DNA of 64,000 nucleotides, taken from assembly GCA_963737065.1 (NCBI GenBank), contig CAVTRC010000001.1, positions 288,001 to 352,000 of the forward strand. Direction: 5' to 3'. The stretch is from Candidatus Eremiobacteria bacterium (GTDB lineage: Bacteria; Vulcanimicrobiota; Vulcanimicrobiia; Vulcanimicrobiales; Vulcanimicrobiaceae). Of this stretch, positions 50,688-64,000 are shown in pieces. Made by a program: the position numbers and the translations under genes. The stretch's first letter is position 1. Each line of letters opens with the position of its first letter. The notes beneath the pieces were generated by a model that searched no databases, had not been told where the DNA came from, and saw only the letters and a program-made list of their open reading frames with translations.

Positions 50688-51422
50688 ATGCGGACGGTTG
50701 AACGCGGCGAGACGCTCGCGATGCTGGCGAGATCGTCCATTTTCGGCTCGTGCGACGAGAACATACTGTCGTTGCTTGTCGAACACGCATCCGTCCACTT
50801 CGCGGAGCGAGGCACGGTGATCGCGGGCGCCGGCAAGCCGTTTCCCTATGTCGGCCTCGTCTCCAAAGGCATTGTCAGCGTTACCGTAAACGCGAATACA
50901 CCGGCACGTTCCGTCCGGCGCGTCGAGCTCTACGAGGCGCGCGACGGCGGTGTCTTCGGCGCCGCCGGTTTCTTCGGATCCGCGCCGCCCTTGGGCGACA
51001 TCGTCGCGATCGCCCGGCGCACGACGTACGTGCTCATTCCCGCAAGCACGCTAAAACGCGCGCTCTCGATGGACCGCCGGCTTTTTTGGCGCATGACGTC
51101 TGCGCTCGCTACGCGCGTCCGCGCGATGGCACAACAACTTACTGCGACCAAAGGTCTTCCCGCGACCGCACGTGTCGCTTCGGTTCTCCTCCGGTTCACG
51201 TCCGACCAAGACGGGCTGCAGCCCGCGCATGCCGCGCTCGCAACGATTACGCACCGCGACATCGCAGCGGCAGCGGCATGCGTGAAGGAATCCGCAGCAC
51301 GCGCAATCTCGAAGCTCGAGTCAGCCGGTGCGCTGCGTCGTGAAAAGGGACACATCACATATCTCGATCGCGGCGTCTTATCGCACTGCGCGGAGATGAC
51401 CGGGACCGGCTCGGCGCTTTAG
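50688..51422 (+). CDS. Crp/Fnr-family transcriptional regulator
   Basis: Degenerate cNMP domain; HTH ITHRDIAAAAACVKESAARAISKLE..G. Confidence 0.85.
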   Translation: MRTVERGETLAMLARSSIFGSCDENILSLLVEHASVHFAERGTVIAGAGKPFPYVGLVSKGIVSVTVNANTPARSVRRVELYEARDGGVFGAAGFFGSAPPLGDIVAIARRTTYVLIPASTLKRALSMDRRLFWRMTSALATRVRAMAQQLTATKGLPATARVASVLLRFTSDQDGLQPAHAALATITHRDIAAAAACVKESAARAISKLESAGALRREKGHITYLDRGVLSHCAEMTGTGSAL

Positions 51423-51423
51423 C

Positions 51424-51696
51424 ATGGTTCGCATCGTTCTCGATGGAGAGTTGGATCTGAGCGCAAAAGACGCTCTAACCGAGCGACTCCATGAGGCGAC
51501 CGATGCGGACGTCGCTGTCATCGACCTCTCTCGCGTAACGTATCTCGATAGCACGGCGATCCATTGCTTCATTGAGCTGAAAAACCGCATGATCGGCCGC
51601 GGGCACGCCGGAGTCGTCAAACTGCTCTCTCCGCACGATCGCATCCGGAAAATTTTTGAGCTATGCGATCTCAACCGCTTGTTCCCAATCGTGTAA
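51424..51696 (+). CDS. STAS-domain anti-anti-sigma factor
   Basis: GELDL, IDLSRVTYLDST, IF.LC.L. Confidence 0.9.
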   Translation: MVRIVLDGELDLSAKDALTERLHEATDADVAVIDLSRVTYLDSTAIHCFIELKNRMIGRGHAGVVKLLSPHDRIRKIFELCDLNRLFPIV

Positions 51697-51804: not shown

Positions 51805-52338
51805 ATGACGAAGAACGCCGAGCAACTCATGACGCGAGTGCGTGCACGCGATACGGATGCGTTCGAAGCGCTGTACGACGCGCATCATCGGCTCGTGTAC
51901 GGACTAGCTGCTCGCATGCTAGGCGACGTTTCCGGCGCTGAAGACGTAACACAAGCGGTGTTTTTGAAGGTATGGCTGGCGCCAGACCGATTTCACGGCG
52001 GGAATTTTCCGGCATGGATCGCGCGCATAACGCGCAATCGCGCGCTCGACGTGTTGCGCACACGAAGCACTCGCGAGTGTGAGCTTCCGTTCGCTATGTC
52101 CGAAGACGTCCCACTGGAAGAAACGGCGTTTGCGAATCTTGATGCCGACATCGTGCGCCGTGCGGTTGCAGCGCTGCCGCAAGAGCAGCGTGAGCCGATC
52201 GAACTCGGCTTCTTCAGCGGCATAACGTACGAAGAAATTTCGCGGCGAAGCGGCGTTCCGCTCGGAACCGTTAAAACGCGTATCCGCATGGGATTGAGAA
52301 AGCTGCGCTCCTTACTCGAAGGAGCGGTAACGGTATGA
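51805..52338 (+). CDS. ECF RNA polymerase sigma factor (SigK-like)
   Basis: AFEALYD, AEDVTQ.VFLKVW, W...I.RNRA.D, LGFF.G.TY.EI....GVPLGTVKTRIR. Confidence 0.93.
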   Translation: MTKNAEQLMTRVRARDTDAFEALYDAHHRLVYGLAARMLGDVSGAEDVTQAVFLKVWLAPDRFHGGNFPAWIARITRNRALDVLRTRSTRECELPFAMSEDVPLEETAFANLDADIVRRAVAALPQEQREPIELGFFSGITYEEISRRSGVPLGTVKTRIRMGLRKLRSLLEGAVTV

Positions 52339-53066
52339 ACGGCGCACACGCGGACATGCTCGATGAAGTCGCCGTGTACGTGCTCGGAACGCTGCCCGAG
52401 GATGAGAGCGAACGCGTGCGCCGGCACATCGAATCATGCAGCGATTGCCGGGCGGAATACGAGGCGCTTCTCCCCGTCGTCGGTGCACTGGCCCGGGTTG
52501 CTGAAGCGCCCGCCGGCGCCGCGATCGGCTCAACTGATGCGTCGTCCTTACTGAAGGCGCGCATCATGCGTGAGGTTCGTCCGAGTAAGCGTAACACCGC
52601 GTTGCCGGCGTATCTCGTGGCCGCGGCCTGCGCGGTGATCGCACTCGGCTTCGGCTGGGAGACTTTGACGCTCGGAAAACAGCTTCACAACGTACAAGAG
52701 TCGTATTCCTCGATTGCGCGAGCGCATACGAACGACGAGAGCGCATTGGCTGACTTAGTGAGCGCACGGGCGAAGCGGTATATCGTTCCGGGCGGTGAAA
52801 TCGTGAAGTCAAACAATCGCATATACATTGCGATGAGCCATATGCCGAAGCCACCGGCTGGGAAAGTCTATCAAGCGTGGACCCAGCCGCACGGGTCGAA
52901 GACGATGGTTCCCGGACTGACGTTTGTGCCGAACGATCGCGGTGTAGCAATCGTACGAGTCTCGTCCGATGCAAGCGCGTTGCACGCGGTCGCGGTCAGC
53001 ATCGAGCCACCGGGCGGAAGTAAAGCTCCCACAACGTCCCCGGTGGTCGTCGAAGTCCTCGACTGA
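52335..53066 (+). CDS. Anti-sigma factor, ZAS + TM + RskA-like domain
   Basis: HxxxCxxC (HIESCSDC), TM helix, P.GKVYQAW, AVSIEP.GGS..PT. Confidence 0.92.
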   Translation: MNGAHADMLDEVAVYVLGTLPEDESERVRRHIESCSDCRAEYEALLPVVGALARVAEAPAGAAIGSTDASSLLKARIMREVRPSKRNTALPAYLVAAACAVIALGFGWETLTLGKQLHNVQESYSSIARAHTNDESALADLVSARAKRYIVPGGEIVKSNNRIYIAMSHMPKPPAGKVYQAWTQPHGSKTMVPGLTFVPNDRGVAIVRVSSDASALHAVAVSIEPPGGSKAPTTSPVVVEVLD

Positions 53067-53103
53067 TGATTTGAACGAACCGTCCGGTTCGGTCTACATG
53101 AAC

Positions 53104-54427
53104 CTATAAATGTTGGTCGAGCGACGCCAACTCTGTACGAGCCTGCTGTGCGTACGTTGGATCGAATTGCGGGTTCTCCGCGAGTGCCGAACTGGAGAAG
53201 CGACCGCGCTCTTATCGTCTGCCCGTCGTGCAGCGCGATCATTGCTGCATGATACCGTATGCGGGGATCTTGCGTGTTATATCTGGTCGCGAGGCGTATA
53301 GCGTTCCGCGCCATCGTCCATTGTCCGGCCGCAGCCGCACACCAGGCGAGCGTATCTTGCGCATAGATTTCGTCACCGCGATGCGCCACCTCGCGTTGCG
53401 CGATGTGTAAGCCGTCCGCAACCCGTACACCGTGTTCGCAATAGTAGACCGCAAGAAGACGATCGTTGATGTGATAGGCATTTCCAAGCCGCTCGACCGC
53501 GTAGATCAAGTCGCGCGTTCGTTGAGCGGCCGCCGCGTCGCCGAGTGCGTTTTGCGCGTCGCTCTCGTATCCTAGGATCTCCGGCTCCGGAACGATATTC
53601 GCGCCGGTTTGCGCAGATTTGAGCGCGCATTCCCAGTCGCGGCTTGCCCAACAAAAGCGCGCGAGGGCACGGTATGCCATTTCAAAATTACCGAACTGCG
53701 ATATCGCAACACGCTCCTCGCGCTCGGCGGAAGCAACGTCGCCCGCCGAAAATGCGAGTTCACCCGCGCGAAAATGATACCAGGCACGTGCTTGTGCCGA
53801 ATTGTCGGCTACAGCGTCGGATTGCGCGGTAGCGCGCGCTAGCGCTGTGCGCGCGCGTTCGAGATTGCCCGTGAGCTCGTCATATCGAGCTTGAACCGCT
53901 AGGACGGTTGGCGTCACATGGATTGCGGACGCGATTCGAAGATCGCGCGCTGCGGCCCGGTAATCGCCAAGCTCCATCTGCAGCGACGCCATCTGCGAGG
54001 GCGCATTTGAGTCATTGGGTTGATCCGCGTGCGCGGCTGTCTCGTACGCCAACGCCGTCGGAAAAAGGTGCAGCGCCGTATATGCCGATGCTGCGATTTC
54101 GTCCGCTGCAGCATTGTTTTGCGGTTGTAGCTTAAGGGACCGCTTCGCGTCGCGTATCGCGCGCAGAATGTCGGCTACATCCTGTTCTTCGCGGTAACGT
54201 TGCATGTACTGCGCCGCCAGAAGTTTCGCGCTGATTTGATCCTGCGGATATGCCCGCACACGCTGCTCGTAAAATGCGATCGTCGCGTTTCGAAACGTGT
54301 AATCGGGCAGCACCGGCGCAACGTACGCCTGAGCCGACGCCGGCCGGTGCGACGCGAATACCGGCCATGCGGCGACTGCTATAATTGCAGCCGCCGCTAT
54401 GATCGTCGTCGAGATGCGAAGCTTCAG
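53104..54427 (-). CDS. Secreted TPR protein (CTG start; 1-nt insertion near 53190)
   Basis: Paralog of 56082-57386; corrected C-terminus SALAENPQFDPTYAQQARTELASLDQHL*; AGGAG SD before CTG overlapping upstream TGA. Confidence 0.82.
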
Positions 54428-55143
54428 TGAGGTGCTCCTAAGTAGGGGAACGCCGTCGTGAAATGCTTCGGTGCGGTTTGCCACGATACGTGATCCGACG
54501 TGAGGTCGGGGCGGTGCCCCGACGGGTACGTCGCGTCAGCTCGTCCATCGGACTCTTTCATATCGTCGGGGGCGAGTCCAAGGCTCGGAATCGTTTTTCC
54601 GAAAATCGTTCCAAGCGAGAGATCAACCACGTCGTCCGTGAGCGCGCGACCGCCGAATGGCTTTAACGCCGCCGGCGCTTGCGTGGCGCCTTTCGTTTCA
54701 ATGCCAAGGTAGTTGTTGCACGTGCCCGGAGCAGTGCCGATACACGATTGGCTTGTTCCGGAGAGATCGACGATTTGCACGTCCGGCGTCAGCACGCTTC
54801 GCTCGACGGTCGCGATCGCGGTGCTACGGCCGGCAACGTTCGTCATGAACGCCATGATTTGAGGACCAAGGACGGCCGCATCTTGATTAGGAGTATCGAT
54901 ATTGTTCCCTTGATGCTCGGCGAACGTCGCGAACACTTCGTTAACGGCCGGCCGATTCAAACGGTCGAGTTGCTTGTACGGGCCGGCGCCCAATGATGTT
55001 AGTTCCGGATTGCCGCCCGGGGGATTCGATGGTGCAACGGGTGCTCCACCGTTTGGCGATGTGGTGCTGCCTCCACCCGAACAGGATATGAGCAGAAGCG
55101 ATGCGGCAAGAGAGACGGTAGCTGAAAATAGTATACGTCGCAT
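54424..55143 (-). CDS. DUF4331-family lipoprotein (C-terminal half)
   Basis: Lipobox LISC; QLDRLNRPAVN, GGR.L.DDVVD.SL, FPYLG.PH. Confidence 0.85.
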   Translation of the reverse strand: MRRILFSATVSLAASLLLISCSGGGSTTSPNGGAPVAPSNPPGGNPELTSLGAGPYKQLDRLNRPAVNEVFATFAEHQGNNIDTPNQDAAVLGPQIMAFMTNVAGRSTAIATVERSVLTPDVQIVDLSGTSQSCIGTAPGTCNNYLGIETKGATQAPAALKPFGGRALTDDVVDLSLGTIFGKTIPSLGLAPDDMKESDGRADATYPSGHRPDLTSDHVSWQTAPKHFTTAFPYLGAPH

Positions 55144-55150
55144 CGTTCAC

Positions 55151-55909
55151 CTAGCTCCCACTCGACGTGTATGTCGTGACCCAGTATGCGATCTTCGGTC
55201 CGTTGCAGCCGGCGATCAAATCGGCACGCGGCATCTCAATGACGATCGAGAGCACGTTGTAACCCGTGAAAAAGTCTTGTCCCGGATCGTTGAATCCCTG
55301 AGGACACGTTCCGTTTCCGAGTTTCGGAAGGCAGCTTGGCGCCATGCTTCCTCTGTTGCGATCGGGAAGTATTTTAAGGAACTGCGCCAGATCGAAGAAG
55401 AACGGCTCTTCGCGGGCGCCCGCGAAAACCTGCATATCGCCGACCTTGAAGGGCTGGCCGATCGTTCCTTGCCCGGTCATCGGCACGAGCGATGCTTGAT
55501 TTCCAAGCGATACGGGGTGCGCGGGCCCGTTGACGTAGATCGGTTGATTTGCACCCGGTTGACCCGCTACGACCTGGATCACGAACGATTGGTAAATGCT
55601 TTGCGATGGCGTCATCGTGTTCTCGTCTTCGCCATCGAAGTTCATTTGGTAGATTACGCCGGGATCGAAGAACGTGGAGGAGCCCTGGCCGCTCGGGATG
55701 AGCGGATGGACGTTCATCACCATGACGACGTTCTTGGCGTTGTCCGGCGCCGGGAAAATGTATGGATCGGTAATGTCGGCGCCCGGTCTACCGATAGTGA
55801 CGGGGGAGTCTTGATGATCGGAAGCTCTCGCGGCAAACGTCATATACAGTCCGAAAGCAAGCACGAGAGTTGCGAGCATCGCGACGCCGCCGAGCAGTCG
55901 CGATTTCAT
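55151..55909 (-). CDS. DUF4331-family secreted protein (N-terminal half)
   Basis: ASDHQDSP, ADITD.Y.F, FAG.R.EPFFFD, NVLSIVIE.P. Confidence 0.88.
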   Translation of the reverse strand: MKSRLLGGVAMLATLVLAFGLYMTFAARASDHQDSPVTIGRPGADITDPYIFPAPDNAKNVVMVMNVHPLIPSGQGSSTFFDPGVIYQMNFDGEDENTMTPSQSIYQSFVIQVVAGQPGANQPIYVNGPAHPVSLGNQASLVPMTGQGTIGQPFKVGDMQVFAGAREEPFFFDLAQFLKILPDRNRGSMAPSCLPKLGNGTCPQGFNDPGQDFFTGYNVLSIVIEMPRADLIAGCNGPKIAYWVTTYTSSGS

Positions 55910-55954
55910 AGATTGGTAATCGCTCCGTTGAAGGAAATTCCGAGTAATGGGGAC

Positions 55955-55982
55955 ACAACGGCCGGGATCGATAGGCGGATGT
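55955..55982 (-). promoter_or_regulatory. ECF-type promoter ACATCC-N16-CGTTGT
   Basis: Upstream of split-DUF4331 operon; same motif as four other copies. Confidence 0.7.
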
Positions 55983-56047
55983 AACGACGCGCGATTTAGG
56001 GTCGGAAGCCCTAAGCAAACCCGGTAAAGGGCCTATACCAAAAAAGG

Positions 56048-56076
56048 CAATCCATACCGCGCGTCTGCACGTTGAT
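56048..56076 (+). promoter_or_regulatory. ECF-type promoter CAATCC-N16-CGTTGAT
   Basis: Ends 5 nt before GTG 56082. Confidence 0.8.
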
Positions 56077-56081
56077 ACCTC

Positions 56082-57386
56082 GTGCGCGCGTTTCGTGTAA
56101 TCGCCGTTATTGCGGCGGTGGCAATCATACTCTGGCCATTTTTCGGGAACCGGCATGGAGACGCGGCTGCATTCCAAGCCCCGATAACACGCGACTATCT
56201 CGTGCGCGATCGTGTCATCTCGTTTTACGAGCGGCGCATGCGTGAAGATCCGGCTGATGGTTTGAGTGCGCGTTTGCTTGCGAGCCAGTATCTGCAGCGC
56301 TACCGCGAAACACTCGACGTTGGGGATGTCACGCGTGGCATCGGCGAAGCCGCATATTCGCTTCGCCGGCAACCCGCGCACAACGCAGCCGCAGACGAAC
56401 TCGCTGCATCGGGATACTACGCGCTCCACGATTTCACGCGCGCATTGTATTTTGAAAATCTAGCGCACGGTACCGATTCGGCCGATGCAAACGCTCCCTC
56501 GCAGATGGCCCTGCTCGCGATGGAGTTGGGGCACTACGCGCAGGCACAATCGTTCATCCGGGAGGCGGCGCGCGCGGGCGCAGGGCCGGCGGAATGGTCG
56601 GCGGAGGCGCGCTATGACGAATTGACGGGATCGATCGACTCCGCCAAAGCCCTAATGGAGCGCGCCGCGCAACGAAGCGATGCGGTGATCGACACGCCGG
56701 CGTCCTCTCGAGCTTGGTACCACGTTCGTCTTGGCGAGATGGCTTTCGCGACCGGCGACGTTAACCGTGCAGAAGCCGAGGAGCATATCGCGCTCGTCGA
56801 CTTTCCTCGATACGAACTCGCATATCGAGCGCTAGCGCGATTCTGTTGGGCGGACCGTGACTGGCGTTGCGCGCTCGATACGGCGCGAACCGGCGCGCAG
56901 ATTCTTCCCGAACCCGAAATTCTCGGTTACGAGAGTGATGCGCAACGTGCGCTCGGCGACGTTCAAGGCGCGCGTCGAACACGAGACCTTATCTTCGCCG
57001 TTGAACGCATCGGCAACGCCTACCACATCAACGATCGCCTTCTGGCGACATATTATTCGGAACATGGTGTCCGGCTCGAAGACGCGTTTGCGATCGCACA
57101 GCGAGAAGTAACGCTCCGCGGAACCGAGATCTTCGCACAAGACACTTTTGCTTGGGCCGCGGCAATGGCCGGTCGTTGGGCGATCGCCGACCGCGCAAGC
57201 GCGAACGCCATGCGGTTTAACACCCAAGACTCACGGATTCTTTTCCACGCGGGCGCTATCGCGTATCACTTCGGTCGAACGGCGCGCGCTCGCGCGCTGC
57301 TGCGGCGCGCCCTCGCGCTAAACGCGCATTTCGATCCTTTCTACACCGTGCAAGCGCAAAGCATGCTTGCTACACTCTCGCAGTAA
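56082..57386 (+). CDS. Secreted TPR protein
   Basis: N-terminal hydrophobic segment, TPR helices, QD..AW, .FHAG.I; paralog of 53104-54427. Confidence 0.88.
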   Translation: MRAFRVIAVIAAVAIILWPFFGNRHGDAAAFQAPITRDYLVRDRVISFYERRMREDPADGLSARLLASQYLQRYRETLDVGDVTRGIGEAAYSLRRQPAHNAAADELAASGYYALHDFTRALYFENLAHGTDSADANAPSQMALLAMELGHYAQAQSFIREAARAGAGPAEWSAEARYDELTGSIDSAKALMERAAQRSDAVIDTPASSRAWYHVRLGEMAFATGDVNRAEAEEHIALVDFPRYELAYRALARFCWADRDWRCALDTARTGAQILPEPEILGYESDAQRALGDVQGARRTRDLIFAVERIGNAYHINDRLLATYYSEHGVRLEDAFAIAQREVTLRGTEIFAQDTFAWAAAMAGRWAIADRASANAMRFNTQDSRILFHAGAIAYHFGRTARARALLRRALALNAHFDPFYTVQAQSMLATLSQ

Positions 57387-57407
57387 CATCGGAGCAACCA
57401 CACAACA

Positions 57408-58688
57408 ATGAGATCGTCGTCTCGCCTCGCTTTCCCGATCTTTGCCGTGTTCCTCGCCGTTGTCGCACTCACGCTGTATCTACCGCGGACGGCGCGCACT
57501 TCCGACCATCAAGACTCGCCGCTGATGGTGGGGCGTCCCGGCGCGGACATCACCGACGTGTTCGTCTTTCCCGCAGCGAACCCCAATGATGTCGTCCTCG
57601 CAATGAACGTTCATCCCTTGATCGCCGCTGGAACGTACAGTACGGTATCGTTCGATCCTGGGGTTATGTATCAGTTCAAAATCGCGACGAACGGCGGCTA
57701 TCGTGAAAATAAAGTCATCCAGTTCCGTGCAATCGGATCGGGCCCGTCGCAACGCATTGAGATGTATGGGCCCGCGGCACCGGCAACACCGGGAACGGTC
57801 TCGCAGTGGGCCGGCTCACCGCAAACGTTCACCGTTAATCGCAAGGCGCAACTCTCCGGCGGGATCATCGCGATGGCCGGTCCAAGGCAAGACCCTTTCT
57901 ATTTCGATCTGGCCCAGTTCCTCAAGATCGTTCCTGACCGCAGCTATAAGTACCACCCGCCGGCGGGGAACGGCGTGCCGGCGCCCTCGGCGCGGTGTTT
58001 CCGCAAGCCGGGTGTCGATACGCTGCGCGGTTACGATGTTCTATCGTTCGTCGTAGAACTGCCGCGCCGGATGCTCGCCAACTCCAACGGAAAACTCGGC
58101 GTTATTCGTGTCTACGCGACCACGTCAACCGAACAGAACGGCCGATGGATTCAGGTGGAGCGGCTCGGGCGTCCTGCGGTGAAGGAAGCGTTTCAAATGT
58201 ATGAGCGTCACGACGCGACGAATCGGAGTGCTCCGTGGAACGATCCGCTGCTGCCGCACGATATCATTTCGTTTATGACGTCGCCGCGCGCCGCGCACCG
58301 TTCGATGCAACTCGCGAAAGCCGTAGAAGCCGTACTGATTCCTGATGAAATGGAAGCAGATCTCTCCGCCGACGGACCCGCGCGTTATCTTGCTGTCGAG
58401 ACGAAAGGCAAGAGCGGACTGCCTACCGGCATCGTGCGAGTTGTCCCGGACTTTCCGCTCGGCGGCGTGAAGAAAGCGTTGAAGAACCCCTACCGTGATT
58501 TCGGCGGCCGCGATCCATCGAGCCCGGTCATCGATCTTTCACTCGGCATCATTTTCGGAACGCTCGGTGAAAAGGTCGGACTAGCGCCGCCCGACGGGCA
58601 ACAGACCGATTGTCTCACGAGCGACAACGTTCAACCACCGGATCGAGGCGTAACAAAAACGTTCCCATATCTCGGCGTGCCACTCTAA
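57408..58688 (+). CDS. DUF4331-family secreted protein (full length)
   Basis: SDHQDSP, ADITDVFVF, GPRQDPFYFD, QVERLGRPAV, TFPYLG.P. Confidence 0.9.
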   Translation: MRSSSRLAFPIFAVFLAVVALTLYLPRTARTSDHQDSPLMVGRPGADITDVFVFPAANPNDVVLAMNVHPLIAAGTYSTVSFDPGVMYQFKIATNGGYRENKVIQFRAIGSGPSQRIEMYGPAAPATPGTVSQWAGSPQTFTVNRKAQLSGGIIAMAGPRQDPFYFDLAQFLKIVPDRSYKYHPPAGNGVPAPSARCFRKPGVDTLRGYDVLSFVVELPRRMLANSNGKLGVIRVYATTSTEQNGRWIQVERLGRPAVKEAFQMYERHDATNRSAPWNDPLLPHDIISFMTSPRAAHRSMQLAKAVEAVLIPDEMEADLSADGPARYLAVETKGKSGLPTGIVRVVPDFPLGGVKKALKNPYRDFGGRDPSSPVIDLSLGIIFGTLGEKVGLAPPDGQQTDCLTSDNVQPPDRGVTKTFPYLGVPL

Positions 58689-58711
58689 GAGTGCGCGCGC
58701 GATCGTCTGCA

Positions 58712-59206
58712 TCACGAGTGGGGCAGCGCGTCGAGTTCGTCGACGTTGACGTATCCGCGGTGTCGCGGTGGCGGCGGTGAAGTGACGACGATTCCCGCCG
58801 TCTGAATTTTGCCCGGAAGCGTGCCGCTGTCGTATACAAGCACGTGCGTTTGTTTCCGTGGCGCATAGAAATCGACGCTTTGCGGACGCCGGCCGGGGAT
58901 GACGACGCTTCCGGTGCCGCCGTTCTTCCCTCGGATACCAAAGATCCGCAAACGGCTTCCCGAAAAAACGATGGTAATGGAATCGCCGCCGTCGAAAGAG
59001 CGCGCGCTCTCGCCATGAAACCGTCCGTCGTCGCGATGGATGATCTGCCAACGGCCCGAGTACCGAACGTCCAAGATAGATTTTTCGTGTTCCGCGGCTA
59101 CCGACTGTACAACGGCCGACGCCGCGGCGGCCTGCGCCGCCCGTGGATCGGCCGCGTGACAGTCGACCAGCAGCGTTACGGCAACCGTCGCGGCCAAAAC
59201 CTTCAT
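58712..59206 (-). CDS. Putative lipoprotein with galactose-binding-like jelly-roll domain
   Basis: LVDC lipobox-like; YSG.W, GDS....F.G....IFG......G...V. Confidence 0.7.
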   Translation of the reverse strand: MKVLAATVAVTLLVDCHAADPRAAQAAAASAVVQSVAAEHEKSILDVRYSGRWQIIHRDDGRFHGESARSFDGGDSITIVFSGSRLRIFGIRGKNGGTGSVVIPGRRPQSVDFYAPRKQTHVLVYDSGTLPGKIQTAGIVVTSPPPPRHRGYVNVDELDALPHS

Positions 59207-59757
59207 TGAGTCGGATACGCTCGGTGCAAATCCATTATCGCTGCGGAAAGGATCACGTGAAATTCGGCATTGTTTCGAGGGCCGACGGCGGTATCGGCAT
59301 CCGCCTCGTGCATCAACGTAATGTGCATAGGCCGCGAAAGCATGTGTTCGAGCATATACCCGACGTCATATCGGCCATCCGGCATGACACCCGCATTGTA
59401 CAGTGAACGTGCCAGCGTAGGCGCCGGCGGAACGGATGCGTCGGGAAGGGAGATATGCTGACGTTCTACTTGGATAACGGCAAGGTGCACGAATGCGTCA
59501 AACGTTTTGAAAAACTGAGCGACGTTTGCCGCGCCGAATCGATGTTGAAGCGACGCGCTTTCCTTCGCCATATCCGGTCCCGCCAGATACGCAACGAGCT
59601 TCTCCGACGAAAACGATTTGGCGCCGCCACCGGCGGCGATCATTTGCGCGGTCAACGTCAGATCGGGCTTACCATAGTATCGCCCGTGCGATGCATTCAT
59701 CGCCGCTGACGAAGCACCATGAGTCAACGCCGCTGCCATCAAAAGCCCGAAAACCAT
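59203..59757 (-). CDS. Secreted helical hypothetical protein with His/Met cluster
   Basis: Signal peptide; Y.G.PDL.LT...I.AGGG...FS; EHMLSRPMHITLMHE. Confidence 0.8.
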   Translation of the reverse strand: MVFGLLMAAALTHGASSAAMNASHGRYYGKPDLTLTAQMIAAGGGAKSFSSEKLVAYLAGPDMAKESASLQHRFGAANVAQFFKTFDAFVHLAVIQVERQHISLPDASVPPAPTLARSLYNAGVMPDGRYDVGYMLEHMLSRPMHITLMHEADADTAVGPRNNAEFHVILSAAIMDLHRAYPTQ

Positions 59758-59842
59758 TATCACCGCCTCTCGTAGTCGCCGGTTGCTATTTTGCGTTTTC
59801 CCTCCAACCGGTGAATCGTTCCTTCCCTCGATGGATGGAGCA

Positions 59843-59871
59843 CAATCCGTCGCGCCGGCATCAACGTTGAT
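59843..59871 (+). promoter_or_regulatory. ECF-type promoter CAATCC-N16-CGTTGAT
   Basis: Ends 5 nt before ATG 59877. Confidence 0.8.
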
Positions 59872-59876
59872 TGCGT

Positions 59877-60071
59877 ATGGATCACGACGAGCGACACCAC
59901 TCGCATGTGCATGCGCATCTTGACGGCACGGTTCATTTTCACCGGCACGAACATGGCGGTTTCGATCACGAACACGAGCACGAGCACGAGCACGGAAACA
60001 ATCGGCAGGCGTTCGTCGGCGTGTCGAAAGCAAACAAAGAACGCGCGGACCCCGGCGCTCGGACATCGTAA
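59877..60071 (+). CDS. His-rich 64-aa putative metal-binding peptide
   Basis: 15 His in the first 39 residues; own promoter motif; TAATG overlap with next gene. Confidence 0.75.
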   Translation: MDHDERHHSHVHAHLDGTVHFHRHEHGGFDHEHEHEHEHGNNRQAFVGVSKANKERADPGARTS

Positions 60072-60403
60072 TGCCGCGCAGAAAAGGCTCTGGCCGACTG
60101 GGACCTGTACGGTCGCTTCGACTACCGCTCGCCTTGGAACGCTGGTTCGGAGCGACTCTTTGCCTGCGGCCCGATCACTCGGCGAGCAGTCTGTTACTTG
60201 AGCTCGTACATGGAGGTCTGCGCCTCGCCCCGGGGTACATGCGGCGACACGCGGCAGCACTGCTCGCGCTTGAACGTGACGGTGCAGCGATCGCACGCGA
60301 AAACTACGCGCGCGCGCTCGGCGATACGTTCGGCGAACGGTATGTTGCACATGTCGAGGCGTGGATTCAAAGCGAGCGCGGCACTATCACCGCGTCGAGG
60401 TAA
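60071..60403 (+). CDS. Hypothetical protein, possible ribbon-helix-helix N-terminus
   Basis: VRSLRLP-helix-S.S.LL.ELV pattern; translationally coupled to His-rich peptide. Confidence 0.65.
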   Translation: MPRRKGSGRLGPVRSLRLPLALERWFGATLCLRPDHSASSLLLELVHGGLRLAPGYMRRHAAALLALERDGAAIARENYARALGDTFGERYVAHVEAWIQSERGTITASR

Positions 60404-60417
60404 ACAACACGCCAAAA

Positions 60418-62703
60418 TTATGGGGTGAAGGAATATTGCACCCGAACCGTACGAGCTTCCGACGGATGGAAATGATAGTCGTTTATACCGGCGCCGCCGA
60501 GTGCGGGATTCACGCCGGCGTTGTGGACGTTCGCGAGGCTGGCGTCTTGCGGCAACCAGGAGGCGTAATAGTACGTAACGTCGTCCGGGTGCGCGTTTAA
60601 GACATTAAAGAGTCCGATCGTCAACCGCCGGCGTCCAGAGAGTTTCGCCGTGTATTCCGCGTTCAGCAGCGTAGACGGGCTGGAGTACGCGTCGCCTTGC
60701 GTATCCAGTGGACGGGGGCCAAAATAGCGCATGCGAACACTGGCCGCATAGTGCGGCTTGTCGACCGTAACGCCGAGCGACGCGACCGCGCTCAGTGATT
60801 CGGGAACAAACGTTCCTCGACCGTCCGGATTCGTGAGGAACCGCGCAGCCGAATCGGCAATGTCCGCGTCGATCACAAGCCATTTCGTCGGGCGATAGTT
60901 GTTGGCAAATTCGATGCCTTTGCGCCGGCTCGGACCGCCCAGAGACGTCGTACCGTGATCGCCATCGAAGATCAGTTCATTCGCCTGAAACAGCTGCCAC
61001 AACGACACCGTGCTGACCAGTTTATCGTTTGTGAAGCGATAGCCGACCTCATCTCCAACCGACCGATTCAGCAGACCGTTCTGAGCGACAGCCGTGCCCG
61101 TATAGTCGAACCGTTCGTGCGTCTGCGGATCGTCGATGTATGTCACGCCGCGCACGTCGTTTGAGTGAAAGCTTTCTCCGAAGTCGAGATACAACTCGTT
61201 TCTTGAGTTGATTGTATAAGCAACGTTCATCTTTGGACTAATGAGACCGGCTGATCCACGACCGCTATTTTTCGGGTCGTACGCGGCATCGCTGTAACCG
61301 TACACGTCGGCTCGGATCCCCGGATCGATTCTCCATTTACTGGAGAGCCGGAGTTTCGACTGGATATAGATATAGGCGGGCCGCTCAACCACGTGATCGT
61401 CACTAAGGGTTCCATCACGAAATCGCTCGCGATCCCTTACAAGAAACAAGCCGACGGTCGGGATGTTGAAGTTTGTGAATCCTGCTCCGAAGGTCGTCGT
61501 GCTACCGGGAGTATCGACGGTCCGGGTAACGTTTAACCCCTCGAAGAAGCGATTGTCGAGCTGTTCCCGCTGGTCGCCGCACTGAAAGTTGTAGGAGACG
61601 GGCGTAAGCGATCCGGGCGCCGCACCCGCCGGCGCCGTATACGCGGGGCAGTACGAAGCGTAGTTCGGTGCTCGTAGTCTGCTTGTCCCATTCGCGACGC
61701 ATGTGGTATATGCGGTGTTACACGTGATGGGGTTGGCGGTTTCGTTGAAGTAATTCGTCGCATCGTAGAAATCGTAGGTGAAGTTCGAGAAAAGGTCGAG
61801 CCGGTACGCGACTGCATAGGCGTCGACCGCAAACGATCCATTGTGTACGTTGCGCGTCCATTGCGTCGAAAGCGTGAAGTAGCTCGTCGTGCCACCGTCG
61901 CTCGCATCGATGTAGCCGAATCGGCTAAGTTCGTCATCGTCGACGAGGCGCTGCGGAATTTGGTCGCTCGAGTCAAACGTGCCGCTATAGGCGCTCGCAG
62001 TGGCCGTGAAGCTGCCACTCGGACGCACCACGCTGTAGCGAAAGACGCCGTCGTATTTATTGTATTCGTCGGGCTTAACGAATGAGCCGTTATCGTGATA
62101 GACCTCGATCGCGTACAGCAGATTGCCCGCACCGCTCGGATGCGACGCCGCGGTGAAAAACCGGTCATATCCGAAGTCGCCGATTCCAACCGACGTCGTG
62201 GCCGCGATCGTGTCGCGATAGTAGACGTTGTAAGAACCAGCCGTAGAGAAGTCGCCTTGATCGGCGTAATACGTTCCTTTTTTGTATTCGACATTGTTTA
62301 CCAGCTCGGGCATCAGCCAATTGATATCCGAGTAGCCCTGGCCGTGAGCGTGCGTCGGCAGGTTGACGGGAATCCCGTTCACCGTGGAGTCGAGATCCGT
62401 TCCGTGATCGAGCTGAAAGCCGCGTAGATAGTATTGATTCGCCTTGCCTTCGCCGCTGTGTTGGCTGACGACGAGTCCCGGGATTTGCTCTAGTATTTCG
62501 CCCGGACGCAAGATCGGACGCGTCGCGATGTCTTGTTGACTGATGAAACCTTCCGAGGCCGCCGTCGCCGTGCCGATCAGGTTCGTGCTGCGGCCGGTCG
62601 TTTTGACGTTGCCGATCAGCTTGAGCGGAGGCGGAGATGGCGAGGGCGTGGGCGACGGTGTGACGATCGCGAGCGTTGCGCTGAAAAGCACGACAAGCAG
62701 CAT
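60418..62703 (-). CDS. TonB-dependent receptor
   Basis: Plug QHSGEGKANQYYLRGFQLDHGTD, HAHGQGYSD, barrel strands, HP.E.RTVR..YSF C-terminus. Confidence 0.93.
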   Translation of the reverse strand: MLLVVLFSATLAIVTPSPTPSPSPPPLKLIGNVKTTGRSTNLIGTATAASEGFISQQDIATRPILRPGEILEQIPGLVVSQHSGEGKANQYYLRGFQLDHGTDLDSTVNGIPVNLPTHAHGQGYSDINWLMPELVNNVEYKKGTYYADQGDFSTAGSYNVYYRDTIAATTSVGIGDFGYDRFFTAASHPSGAGNLLYAIEVYHDNGSFVKPDEYNKYDGVFRYSVVRPSGSFTATASAYSGTFDSSDQIPQRLVDDDELSRFGYIDASDGGTTSYFTLSTQWTRNVHNGSFAVDAYAVAYRLDLFSNFTYDFYDATNYFNETANPITCNTAYTTCVANGTSRLRAPNYASYCPAYTAPAGAAPGSLTPVSYNFQCGDQREQLDNRFFEGLNVTRTVDTPGSTTTFGAGFTNFNIPTVGLFLVRDRERFRDGTLSDDHVVERPAYIYIQSKLRLSSKWRIDPGIRADVYGYSDAAYDPKNSGRGSAGLISPKMNVAYTINSRNELYLDFGESFHSNDVRGVTYIDDPQTHERFDYTGTAVAQNGLLNRSVGDEVGYRFTNDKLVSTVSLWQLFQANELIFDGDHGTTSLGGPSRRKGIEFANNYRPTKWLVIDADIADSAARFLTNPDGRGTFVPESLSAVASLGVTVDKPHYAASVRMRYFGPRPLDTQGDAYSSPSTLLNAEYTAKLSGRRRLTIGLFNVLNAHPDDVTYYYASWLPQDASLANVHNAGVNPALGGAGINDYHFHPSEARTVRVQYSFTP

Positions 62704-62713
62704 GGTTGTGCCG

Positions 62714-62742
62714 ACAACGTTCTTCCGCGCGCATTCAGATTG
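62714..62742 (-). promoter_or_regulatory. ECF-type promoter CAATCT-N17-CGTTGT
   Basis: Ends 10 nt upstream of the TBDR ATG; slightly degenerate copy. Confidence 0.6.
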
Positions 62743-62831
62743 AATTTGCCGTTATTGTCTACGAAATTGCACTGGCAAGCGCCCTGTCGTTGATTTTCGT
62801 CAGCTCGTTACGACGAATTTCGCTGACGTGG

Positions 62832-62860
62832 CAATCCAACCGGCGTCTTTGCTCGTTGAT
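62832..62860 (+). promoter_or_regulatory. ECF-type promoter CAATCC-N16-CGTTGAT
   Basis: Upstream of the Ni/Co transporter gene. Confidence 0.8.
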
Positions 62861-62891
62861 AGCGCATATCGTGACCGGTCGGGGAGGCAGA

Positions 62892-64000
62892 GTGCGTTCG
62901 GGTCTTTGGAGCGGAGTAGTTGCCTGTCTCGTTTTGCTTTTCGCCGCCGGTCAACCGGTCGAGGCGCATCCGCTTGGGAATTTCACGATCAATCGCCTGG
63001 TTGAAGTCCGCGCAACGTCCGGAATGCTGCACGTTCGATACGTGGTCGATCGGGCGGAAATCCCGACCTTTCAGCTCATGCGCGCTTCATCGACCGACGC
63101 AAGCTGGACGCCCGCCCAGCTTCGTGCATGGGCAGATGAACAGCCCGCGCTCATCACCGAAGGGTTGAATGTTCTCGTCGACGGACGGCGCGCGCCGTTG
63201 CGGCCCGCCGGCGATTTTGCGAAACTGCGACCCGGGGCGGGTGGCCTGCCGATCCTCTACTGGTCAGGCGCCTTTACTACGCCGCTCTCCGACGGTCGCC
63301 ATCACATCGTCGTAGAAGATCGCGTGTTCGACGCGAATCGCATTGGGTGGAAAGACGTCGTCATCGCGCCCCAGACTGAGCCGACGCACGAACTGCTTTC
63401 GTATCCACCGGCGCTCATTTCTTCACCGCGCGCCGTGGAATCGGCGTCGTTTGATCTGTCGGCAACCGCCGGCGTCTCGCACATTGTCGATAATGTCGAT
63501 GACAACGGCGAAGGCGCGTCATCGGGTGTCTCAATTGTCAGGTCGAATGCGCTTTCCGACATGTTCGCGAACCCCAACCGCGCGCCGCTCTTTCTGTTAT
63601 TGACGGCGCTTGTCGCGTTTGGGCTCGGCGCACTGCACGCAATTGAACCCGGTCATGGCAAGGCGCTGCTGGCGTTCACGTTGGTTGGATCGCGCGCAAC
63701 CGTTAAACAAGCAGCAATTCTCGCGGCGTCTCTTACGTTCGCTCATACGATCGGCGTGCTCGTGCTCGGCGTCGTGCTCTTCTTCGCCGCCGGGTTCGCA
63801 ACCGAGTCGATCTATTCGTGGATAACGTTGATCTCCGGTATAGCGGTCGCTGTCATCGGCGCGAGAAATCTTTCGCGATATCTTCATGCGCGCGGGATAC
63901 ACGCCCACGGCGACGGCCACGTTCACGCGCATGATGCGCACGATCATCACCATGGTGATGCCGCGCACGCGCATTCGCACGCGATTCCGGGAACGCGGCC
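62892..64000 (+). CDS. RcnA/NicO-family nickel/cobalt transporter with N-terminal periplasmic domain (partial)
   Basis: GGGGAGG SD, GTG 62892; signal peptide then HPLGNFTIN; LGALHAIEPGHGK, AHTIGV, His-rich loop; open to window end and absent from ORF track. Confidence 0.92.
   Translation, partial: MRSGLWSGVVACLVLLFAAGQPVEAHPLGNFTINRLVEVRATSGMLHVRYVVDRAEIPTFQLMRASSTDASWTPAQLRAWADEQPALITEGLNVLVDGRRAPLRPAGDFAKLRPGAGGLPILYWSGAFTTPLSDGRHHIVVEDRVFDANRIGWKDVVIAPQTEPTHELLSYPPALISSPRAVESASFDLSATAGVSHIVDNVDDNGEGASSGVSIVRSNALSDMFANPNRAPLFLLLTALVAFGLGALHAIEPGHGKALLAFTLVGSRATVKQAAILAASLTFAHTIGVLVLGVVLFFAAGFATESIYSWITLISGIAVAVIGARNLSRYLHARGIHAHGDGHVHAHDAHDHHHGDAAHAHSHAIPGTR

Follow-up and report, generated by a model that had tools for sequence, protein, structure and literature searches.

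Transporters of the NicO/RcnA, HoxN NiCoT, HupE/UreJ and CbiMNQO families are known for nickel or cobalt, and extracytoplasmic accessory proteins such as NikK/NikL and CbiN (NikMNQO/CbiMNQO) and RcnB (with RcnA) are encoded beside transporters of this kind. Two other types of metal-capturing protein have been described. Ang-1, the outer domain of an 'anglerase' in which it is fused to a HupE/UreJ-2 permease, is presented in the available part of its source as a beta-sandwich in which helices separate strands 2 and 3, with a His1 'mono-histidine brace' and a Kd of 74 nM for copper and 220 nM for nickel (PMC12537917). The same part describes DUF4198 (IsDUF4198) as a secreted nickel-binding protein with a Kd of 18 nM (PMC12537917), and the available part of a further paper describes another DUF4198 protein, Zcp, as a periplasmic zinc-capture protein (PMC12663993). 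Here we describe a gene cluster with exported DUF4331 proteins, tetratricopeptide repeat (TPR) partners and NicO-family permeases in a 64,000-nucleotide stretch of DNA (the window) from a Candidatus Eremiobacteria bacterium of soil (phylum Vulcanimicrobiota), and we hold with fair confidence that it is a metal capture and transport module.

The window corresponds to C1:288001-352000 of a two-contig genome of 3.08 Mb that is 95.3% complete, and the close relatives of this genome are metagenome-assembled genomes labelled Vulcanimicrobiota or Eremiobacterota. The cluster occupies window positions 51805-65209 and so extends 1.2 kb beyond the window end; that part was read in the separate sequence L006. 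We consider it rather probable that the cluster is a co-regulated envelope system for a divalent trace metal, with Ni(II) or Co(II) as the most probable choice, which it would capture outside the cytoplasm and import through the NicO-family permeases. Among the metals, nickel or cobalt is favoured because the four transporter families found beside DUF4331 all point to them, and import is likelier than export because importers of the HoxN, CbiMNQO and HupE/UreJ types and a TonB-dependent receptor accompany the module. We infer the identity of the metal, which may be copper, and the direction of transport, and likewise that the metal flows from DUF4331 to the permease rather than the permease supplying DUF4331.

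The DUF4331-TPR pair resembles NikK/NikL, CbiN and RcnB in being extracytoplasmic and encoded beside Ni/Co transporters, but it has no homology to them. DUF4198 is similar in that it is secreted, rich in beta structure, provided with an N-terminal metal-ligand motif and an accessory of uptake rather than a transporter. It differs in that DUF4331 is about twice as large, has its histidine at mature position 3 instead of 1 and has an obligatory TPR partner, and no sequence relation or clear fold relation between the two families was found. DUF4331 and TPR partners are not named in the available part of the Ang-1 paper (PMC12537917). The literature searched makes no mention of DUF4331, PF14224 or IPR025566, which supplements and papers outside the search could hold.

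The neighbours of DUF4331 were surveyed in the best 80 of 590 confirmed relatives, obtained with a narrower family alignment from contigs of one genome per species and mostly belonging to Vulcanimicrobiota. These loci were searched by tblastn with the window proteins, and 20 loci each from Armatimonadota and Planctomycetota were fetched in addition. TPR genes were present in 64 of the 80 loci, fusions of a NicO-type permease to an outer domain (NicO-fusions) in 46 and NiCoT-like genes in 43. Some NicO-type gene was found in 48 loci, 46 of them with TPR. The receptor, the sigma factor and a 110-amino-acid gene of the cluster were found in seven loci each and the anti-sigma factor in one. The 39 loci of at least 19 kb gave 37 with TPR, 32 with a NicO-fusion, 31 with NiCoT, six with the receptor and five with the sigma factor. 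The initial annotation had expected DUF4331 to travel with TPR, Ni/Co transporters, a TonB-dependent receptor and a SigK/RskA pair; the first two associations stand, but the receptor and the SigK/RskA pair do not hold as general companions. The usual arrangement is a one-strand operon of NicO-fusion, sometimes NiCoT, DUF4331 (often split), TPR and sometimes a HoxN-type NiCoT, and in Cybelea the canonical operon contains a full-length NicO/HoxN gene (7e-102). Unbiased clustering of 1442 open reading frames (ORFs) from 100 loci led to an identical rank order, with DUF4331 in 78 loci, TPR in 71, the NicO-fusion in 43 and the HoxN-type NiCoT in 34, and no recurring enzyme family appeared among these ORFs.

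Other phyla were included because the 80 loci are kin. DUF4331 (PF14224) is a large family: among the genomes sampled, it was found in 76 of 151 from Vulcanimicrobiota (a tally with one unpublished genome, G421, that bears on no other claim), 52 of 301 from Planctomycetota and 23 of 201 from Armatimonadota (at E <= 1e-20 for PF14224). All 20 Armatimonadota loci have DUF4331 followed by TPR on the same strand, and 13 have a Ni/Co-type permease beside the pair. Directly after the pair, nine loci have a NicO-fusion homologue (28-45% identity) and four have a HupE/UreJ-2 permease with an N-terminal outer domain of its own (PF13795, 8e-47). CbiM-CbiQ and an ATPase accompany DUF4331-TPR in L135, also from Armatimonadota, and the Fimbriimonadaceae locus L064, from the set of 80, has DUF4331, TPR, CbiM-PDGLE-CbiQ and CbiO in a row; in both, DUF4331-TPR is directly upstream of CbiM-CbiQ-CbiO. 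HoxN-type NiCoT genes beside the module gave matches of 7e-102 and 2e-102. In Planctomycetota, where the ORF calling was crude (longest ORF first) and misses are likely, DUF4198 lies directly beside canonical DUF4331 in 11 of the 20 loci, and genes for sigma factors of the extracytoplasmic function (ECF) type or for anti-sigma factors of the ChrR-cupin type, instead of RskA, are often near. The proposed link between DUF4331 and Ni/Co-type permeases is thus seen across phyla with four families: RcnA-like, HoxN-type, HupE/UreJ-2 and CbiMQO. Since these four and one metal-capture family recur while the gene order varies by phylum, a common function explains the association better than inherited synteny.

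Further genes were observed in some of these loci. A secreted protein of about 270-310 amino acids, without Pfam match, lies between full-length DUF4331 and TPR in one subfamily of loci (L079:468-1388, L024:2243-3163, L019:11230-12150 and about 12 more; 13-15 of 100) and may be a third component. Four Vulcanimicrobiota loci have a pair of Opp/Dpp/Nik-type ABC ATPases (ABC_tran and oligo_HPY) directly upstream of the NicO-fusion (L041:4078-6128, L052:827-3138, L033:5438-7521, L008:1317-3389), which would fit a Nik-like ABC importer. In two Planctomycetota genomes DUF4331 is followed by a HEAT-repeat protein instead of TPR (L129:7591-9297, L130:4185-5873) with an OmpR-type two-component system on the other side, that is, another helical-repeat partner and another type of regulator. 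A small exported protein of about 190 amino acids, also without Pfam match, is encoded just upstream of DUF4331 in several Armatimonadota loci (L141:8545-9123, L140:8544-9194, L142:6071-6904, L150:658-1176, L143:6300-6899).

The genes and promoter motifs of the cluster, in window coordinates, are as follows.

51805..52338, plus strand: ECF sigma factor, SigK-like (Sigma70_r2 5.5e-19, Sigma70_r4_2 5.1e-13)
52335..53066, plus strand: anti-sigma factor with zf-HC2 (ZAS) N-terminus, one membrane span and RskA_C outer domain (PF13490 1.8e-7, PF10099 9.1e-18)
53097 (approximate)..54484, minus strand: TPR partner 1 (TPR1), membrane-anchored, frameshifted at the 3' end (58% identity to TPR2 over 384 amino acids)
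54424..55143, minus strand: DUF4331 C-half, predicted lipoprotein (PF14224 2.3e-13, 50.6 bits, profile positions 249-421)
55151..55909, minus strand: DUF4331 N-half, predicted secreted, mature start SDHQDSP (PF14224 1.4e-25, 90.8 bits, profile positions 103-236)
55956..55981, minus strand: motif variant CATCC-N16-CGTTG, 47 nucleotides before the DUF4331 N-half
56048..56075, plus strand: motif CAATCC-N16-CGTTGA, ending 7 nucleotides before the GTG of TPR2
56082..57386, plus strand: TPR partner 2 (TPR2), 434 amino acids, N-terminal membrane anchor (weak Pfam TPR rows, atlas TPR clusters 0.98-0.99)
57408..58688, plus strand: full-length DUF4331, 426 amino acids, signal peptide followed by SDHQDSP (PF14224 9.8e-39, 134.2 bits)
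58712..59206, minus strand: ORF of 164 amino acids with a signal-peptide-like start, without family match
59203..59757, minus strand: exported-looking ORF of 184 amino acids with a signal-peptide-like start, without family match
59843..59870, plus strand: motif CAATCC-N16-CGTTGA, ending 6 nucleotides before the ATG of the His-rich ORF
59877..60071, plus strand: His-rich ORF of 64 amino acids without signal peptide (seen in the translation)
60071..60403, plus strand: conserved protein of 110 amino acids, candidate small regulator (relatives at 46-55% identity in 7 of the 80 loci)
60418..62703, minus strand: TonB-dependent receptor, 761 amino acids (Plug 3.3e-13)
62715..62741, minus strand: motif variant AATCT-N17-CGTTG, 12 nucleotides before the receptor ATG
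62832..62859, plus strand: motif CAATCC-N16-CGTTGA, about 33 nucleotides before the permease start, with GGGGAGG between
62892..64415 (window-equivalent, running past the window end), plus strand: RcnA/NicO-like permease with an Ang-1-like N-domain (PF03824 8.5e-7, PRK10019 5.9e-16)
64412..65209 (window-equivalent; L006:2412-3209), plus strand: HoxN-type NicO gene (PF03824 5.1e-19)

All parts of the gene list given in the initial annotation were thus found in the sequence, with the labels 'jelly-roll' and 'RHH-like' standing as tentative, including two DUF4331-TPR modules, one of them with a split DUF4331; all three DUF4331 ORFs exceed the gathering cut-off of 27 for PF14224. The gene order differs between the modules, with DUF4331 before TPR on the minus strand and TPR before DUF4331 on the plus strand. 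The flanks of the cluster are unrelated to it, with a CRP-like regulator and a STAS protein upstream and a cyclase, a TIM-barrel protein and a glycosidase downstream. Rfam searches at gathering scores (window, L006, L047, L032 and L007) found only tRNAs and no riboswitch.

DUF4331 and TPR2 are predicted to bind each other. Complex predictions with mature DUF4331 (residues 32-426) and TPR2 (28-434) gave ipSAE values of 0.76, 0.76 and 0.73, compared with 0.00 for the best of three controls. Of 157 solved complexes, 116 reach the pass mark of the tool, as do 2 of 215 mismatched pairs, figures that apply only roughly here since the alignments were our own. The three runs agree in at least 83% of contacts, with partner pLDDT of at least 89. 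On DUF4331 the contact residues are 42-45, 69-85, 110-112, 168-208 and 242, all in the N-half, and on TPR2 they are 31-65, 97-106, 127-138, 165 and 201-204. The model, a check that the initial annotation had suggested, thus supports DUF4331-TPR binding as a prediction, and together with the pairing in 64 of 80 loci and in 20 of 20 in a second phylum it backs the proposed role of TPR as the partner of DUF4331. TPR1 has lost its reading frame near the end: its last approximately 28 residues match the TPR2 C-terminus in another frame, ending at about 53097, with a one-base shift near 53195-53205. The ORF as called continues in the wrong frame to 52871, 230 nucleotides into the anti-sigma gene, so the apparent overlap of the two ORFs results from this frameshift, which could be genuine decay or an indel of the assembly.

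In the split DUF4331, the N-half has 41% and the C-half 33% identity to the full-length paralogue. The N-half ends in a stop codon, and eight bases on, after a GGAG ribosome site, the C-half begins as an ORF of its own with the lipobox LLLISC. A locus from Cybelea (L047) has the same split, with an in-frame stop in the N-half followed by a new lipoprotein start. By motif-based and therefore approximate counts, ORFs holding the C-half only are found in 44 of the 80 loci, 37 of them with a lipobox, and fused ORFs in 23; a library of representatives at 50% identity also holds many N-only (about 250 amino acids) and C-only (about 200 amino acids) members. A pseudogene was considered and ruled out, given the ribosome site and lipobox of the C-half and the recurrence of the split form in relatives.

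The N-terminus of the mature protein is conserved, as had been proposed together with export. The pattern [SA]DHxD occurs within the first 120 residues in 185 of 271 stored family members, right after a signal-peptide-like stretch, and in 184 of these 185 it is preceded at position -1 by A, S, G or T; the remaining 86 members are mostly C-half or partial sequences. S-D-H comes after ARA or ART, the residues at -1 and -3 being small, in 184 of the 185, and the cleavage site is predicted by rule alone. Canonical DUF4331 of Planctomycetota has SSH(R/G/S)(E/D)AP after the signal peptide, and (S/A)SH(S/N)DAP is found in 16 of 17 Armatimonadota sequences. An amino-terminal Cu(II)- and Ni(II)-binding (ATCUN) site requires that the N-terminus be free, that residue 3 be His and that residue 2 not be Pro, and holds Cu(II) or Ni(II) in square-planar geometry through the amine, two amides and the His3 imidazole. 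The predicted mature DUF4331 starts with X-X-His in three phyla and would fit this requirement, both cleavage and metal binding being predictions from sequence. Literature on ATCUN sites in an exported or periplasmic nickel context was found only in papers on PcoB.

The AF2 model of DUF4331 (alignment of 39 rows) has pLDDT 89.5 and pTM 0.86, with a beta-sandwich N-half and a mixed C-half. A Foldseek search of this model against PDB gave nothing at E <= 0.001, a wide VIA-align search gave at best Z 7.3 (7uwu) and otherwise Ig-like matches under 6, which is background level, and the family profile had no sequence match in PDB.

The transporter with HAIEPGHGK named in the initial annotation was confirmed, starting at 62892. 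It consists of a signal peptide, an outer domain that begins with His1 (HPLGNFTINRL), an RcnA/NicO-like membrane part with HAIEPGHGK, a His-rich loop and APCPAA. PF03824 matches with 29.0 bits (cut-off 27.7) and PRK10019 with 58.5 bits (cut-off 195). The adjoining HoxN-type gene reaches 69.1 bits for PF03824 over profile positions 4-236 of 287 and contains HGADPDH, which fits the NiCoT signature, H-x4-D-H in an early helix; these two genes are the only PF03824 matches in the genome. The start H1-P-L-G-N-F-T after the signal peptide is invariant in 30 of 30 aligned NicO-fusion orthologues. His1 is also the start in nine of nine NicO-fusions (HPMGNF) and four of four HupE/UreJ-2 fusions from Armatimonadota.

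The outer domain of the permease resembles Ang-1. Its model (pLDDT 83.3, pTM 0.81) has the secondary-structure order E-E-H-H-E, and the best Foldseek match is 9gce, the copper-bound Ang-1 of a HupE/UreJ-2 permease, with E 4.5e-5 and probability 1.00 (TMq 0.44, TMt 0.53, 12% identity); the next rows have E of about 1e-3. A PDB sequence search with the domain gave nothing meaningful. The order of two strands, helices and a strand matches the description of Ang-1 in the available part of PMC12537917. A signal peptide, a mature N-terminal His, an Ig-like sandwich with a helical insert after strand 2 and fusion to a metal permease are common to both, and true HupE/UreJ-2 versions follow DUF4331-TPR in the four Armatimonadota loci. 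The membrane part of the window protein, however, matches NicO/RcnA and not PF13795, so this is a variant architecture.

The units of the cluster are tied together by a common promoter motif beyond what is expected by chance. The whole genome of 3.08 Mb holds four copies of CAATCC-N16-CGTTGA, where 0.28 would be expected from base composition. Three of the four are on the plus strand of the cluster, 8, 8 and 34 nucleotides ahead of TPR2, the His-rich ORF and the permease, with ends 7, 6 and about 33 nucleotides from the respective starts. In a relaxed form, with one mismatch allowed in AATCC and N16-18 before CGTTG, the motif has nine matches in the 13.8 kb cluster, compared with 2.45 expected from the genome-wide density. 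Five of the nine are in promoter position, 8-47 nucleotides before a start, which adds the receptor (12 nucleotides) and the DUF4331 N-half (47 nucleotides). The initial annotation had described three divergent pairs sharing a motif; five of the six sides carry it, and no copy was found before the sigma gene or before the 184-amino-acid ORF. In relatives, 1.275 Mb of sequence gave 25 motif matches, eight of which precede a homologue of the permease, of DUF4331, of the receptor or of the 110-amino-acid gene by 24-217 nucleotides. The fourth exact copy (C2:153125-153152, minus strand) is about 400 nucleotides upstream of a 198-amino-acid ORF resembling beta-carbonic anhydrase, a zinc enzyme, and is possibly there by chance. 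Three copies (56048-56082, 59843-59877, 62703-62741) end merely 6-12 nucleotides before the start codon, so the transcripts are likely leaderless or nearly so.

In its two-box form and spacing the motif looks like a promoter for an alternative sigma factor, and the neighbouring ECF sigma factor with its RskA-type anti-sigma factor is the likely driver. The sigma factor, SigK-like as proposed, has ECF regions 2 and 4, but its best NCBIfam rows, PRK12519 and SigK PRK09646, are under cut-off (127 bits versus 226 for PRK09646). The ZAS/RskA assignment of the anti-sigma factor agrees with matches to zf-HC2, RskA_C and NF052375 (121.9 bits, cut-off 100). The pair thus has the composition of a SigK/RskA pair and, as in SigK-RskA (ECF19-type) and CnrYXH, adjoins envelope genes, but unlike them it has a sigma factor under the SigK cut-off, no motif upstream of the sigma gene and no CnrX-like sensor. 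The genes for the CRP-like regulator and the STAS-domain protein (50688-51696) immediately precede the sigma gene and share its strand; since the sigma gene has no copy of the common motif, it may be transcribed by read-through from them. In the available part of PMC7509140, the signal sensed by RskA in mycobacteria is described as still unknown.

The ORF named as a TonB-dependent receptor was also found, with the Plug match and the sequences HAHGQG and DHGTD. Receptors of this type combine a plug with a barrel of 22 strands. TIGR01783 matches under its cut-off (7.4e-12) and the length of 761 amino acids fits a receptor; no barrel family was found in Pfam and no sequence relative in PDB. Receptor relatives at 42-59% identity are present in 7 of the 80 loci. 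The His-rich ORF precedes the 110-amino-acid gene directly on the same strand in six of the seven related loci that have the latter. The His-rich protein is likely a cytoplasmic metal buffer, and the 110-amino-acid protein, which has no Pfam match, is a candidate small regulator; in the atlas it scores at most 0.87, and RHH_1, the closest cluster with a name, reaches 0.85, which gives a lead only. Weak relatives (31%) of the 184-amino-acid ORF are found in two of the 80 loci and relatives of the 164-amino-acid ORF in none.

In the mechanism proposed here, the metal, as such or as a chelate, would cross the outer membrane through the receptor and be caught by the secreted DUF4331 beta-sandwich, whose mature N-terminus Ser-Asp-His would serve as an X-X-His site of ATCUN type. 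In the second module two pieces would make up the same fold, a soluble N-half and a C-half anchored by lipid. The TPR protein, itself anchored in the membrane, is predicted to keep DUF4331 at the inner membrane by its N-half. From there the metal may be handed on to the 'angler' domain with N-terminal His that is fused to the RcnA-like permease, and enter the cell through this permease and the adjoining HoxN-type NiCoT. The His-rich protein would then buffer it in the cytoplasm, with the adjacent ECF sigma factor and RskA-type anti-sigma factor driving the common promoters. More generally, and more tentatively, DUF4331 with its tethered TPR might be a widespread, undescribed periplasmic metallochaperone whose ATCUN-type tip hands Ni(II) or Cu(II) to the permease 'angler' domain in a two-step relay between N-terminal sites, with a permease family that depends on the lineage (RcnA-like, HupE/UreJ-2, NiCoT or CbiMNQO) and a fold that is split in some lineages.

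Several observations weigh against the preferred explanation. The receptor and the sigma factor are rare neighbours, and the 80 loci, being mostly from one phylum, are not independent. No copy of the motif precedes the sigma gene itself, and none of 24 relaxed motif matches in Armatimonadota loci lies upstream of DUF4331; the motif is therefore lineage-specific, and its link to the sigma factor is one that we infer. Structural comparison of the DUF4331 model gave no informative relative. In the genome, searches for NiFe hydrogenase, the urease alpha subunit, Lar_N and CbiC had no match, and one ARD homologue was found; Sod_Ni is uninformative, with no match here or in any control genome. Without the usual nickel enzymes the case for a nickel or cobalt demand is weakened, and no clear consumer was identified. 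RcnA, the protein that the fused permease resembles, acts as an exporter in E. coli. A resistance system could be built from the same parts, with the RcnA-like permease exporting nickel or cobalt, DUF4331 and TPR sequestering or sensing it like RcnB or CnrX, the His-rich protein mopping it up and the ECF pair switched on at excess like CnrYXH, an existing case of ECF-controlled Ni/Co resistance. The RcnA-like membrane part with its His-rich loop, HAIEPGHGK and APCPAA, the common motif before the gene of the cytoplasmic His-rich protein and the lack of an obvious consumer would all agree with this. However, the same module occurs with the importer families HoxN-type NiCoT, CbiM-CbiQ-CbiO and HupE/UreJ-2, the cluster contains a TonB-dependent receptor, which is an uptake device, the outward-facing capture domain with N-terminal His suits uptake, and no CnrX-like, RND or CDF genes were seen in the cluster. 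Resistance is accordingly judged unlikely.

The same architecture might instead serve copper or zinc, with Cu(II) captured by the X-X-His tip and the His1 domain and then imported or given to cuproenzymes of the envelope. Among metals, Cu(II) is the one that ATCUN sites hold most tightly, and the lack of the usual nickel enzymes in the genome would agree with such a role. The nearest solved fold, Ang-1, is copper-bound in 9gce and, in the part of its description available, prefers copper to nickel (PMC12537917), and Zcp of the DUF4198 family is described as binding zinc in the available part of PMC12663993. This explanation is nevertheless improbable: the transporter families beside DUF4331-TPR are all four known for nickel or cobalt, and no CopA, CopC/D, CusF or multicopper oxidase was seen in the loci scanned with Pfam. 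A role of DUF4331 as an envelope enzyme or binding protein for a non-metal substrate such as a glycan, with the permeases supplying a metal cofactor to the periplasm, is very improbable. It would suit the beta-sandwich model, whose weak matches include carbohydrate-binding modules (7uwu, 4jpq, 1i82), the many invariant Asp, Arg and Gly positions far from the N-terminus and the occurrence of DUF4331 on its own, for example in L009 and L056. But no catalytic family matches, the structural matches are at background level, and the recurring neighbours are permeases and metal binders and not pathway enzymes. The proposal that DUF4331 is a metal scavenger working with TPR, receptor and transporter is kept as far as export, TPR pairing, the permease link and the common motif are concerned, but not with the receptor and the sigma factor as a rule.

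With metal capture and import as the preferred explanation, the role of DUF4331 becomes concrete and testable, namely that of an extracytoplasmic metal-capture partner of Ni/Co-type permeases. Defined sites are available for this purpose: His3 of DUF4331, His1 of the permease domain and the predicted DUF4331-TPR interface, along with a regulon of five promoters in this genome. The 'anglerase' idea is extended from HupE/UreJ-2 to RcnA-like permeases. If confirmed, these findings would improve the annotation of trace-metal uptake in poorly cultured soil phyla.

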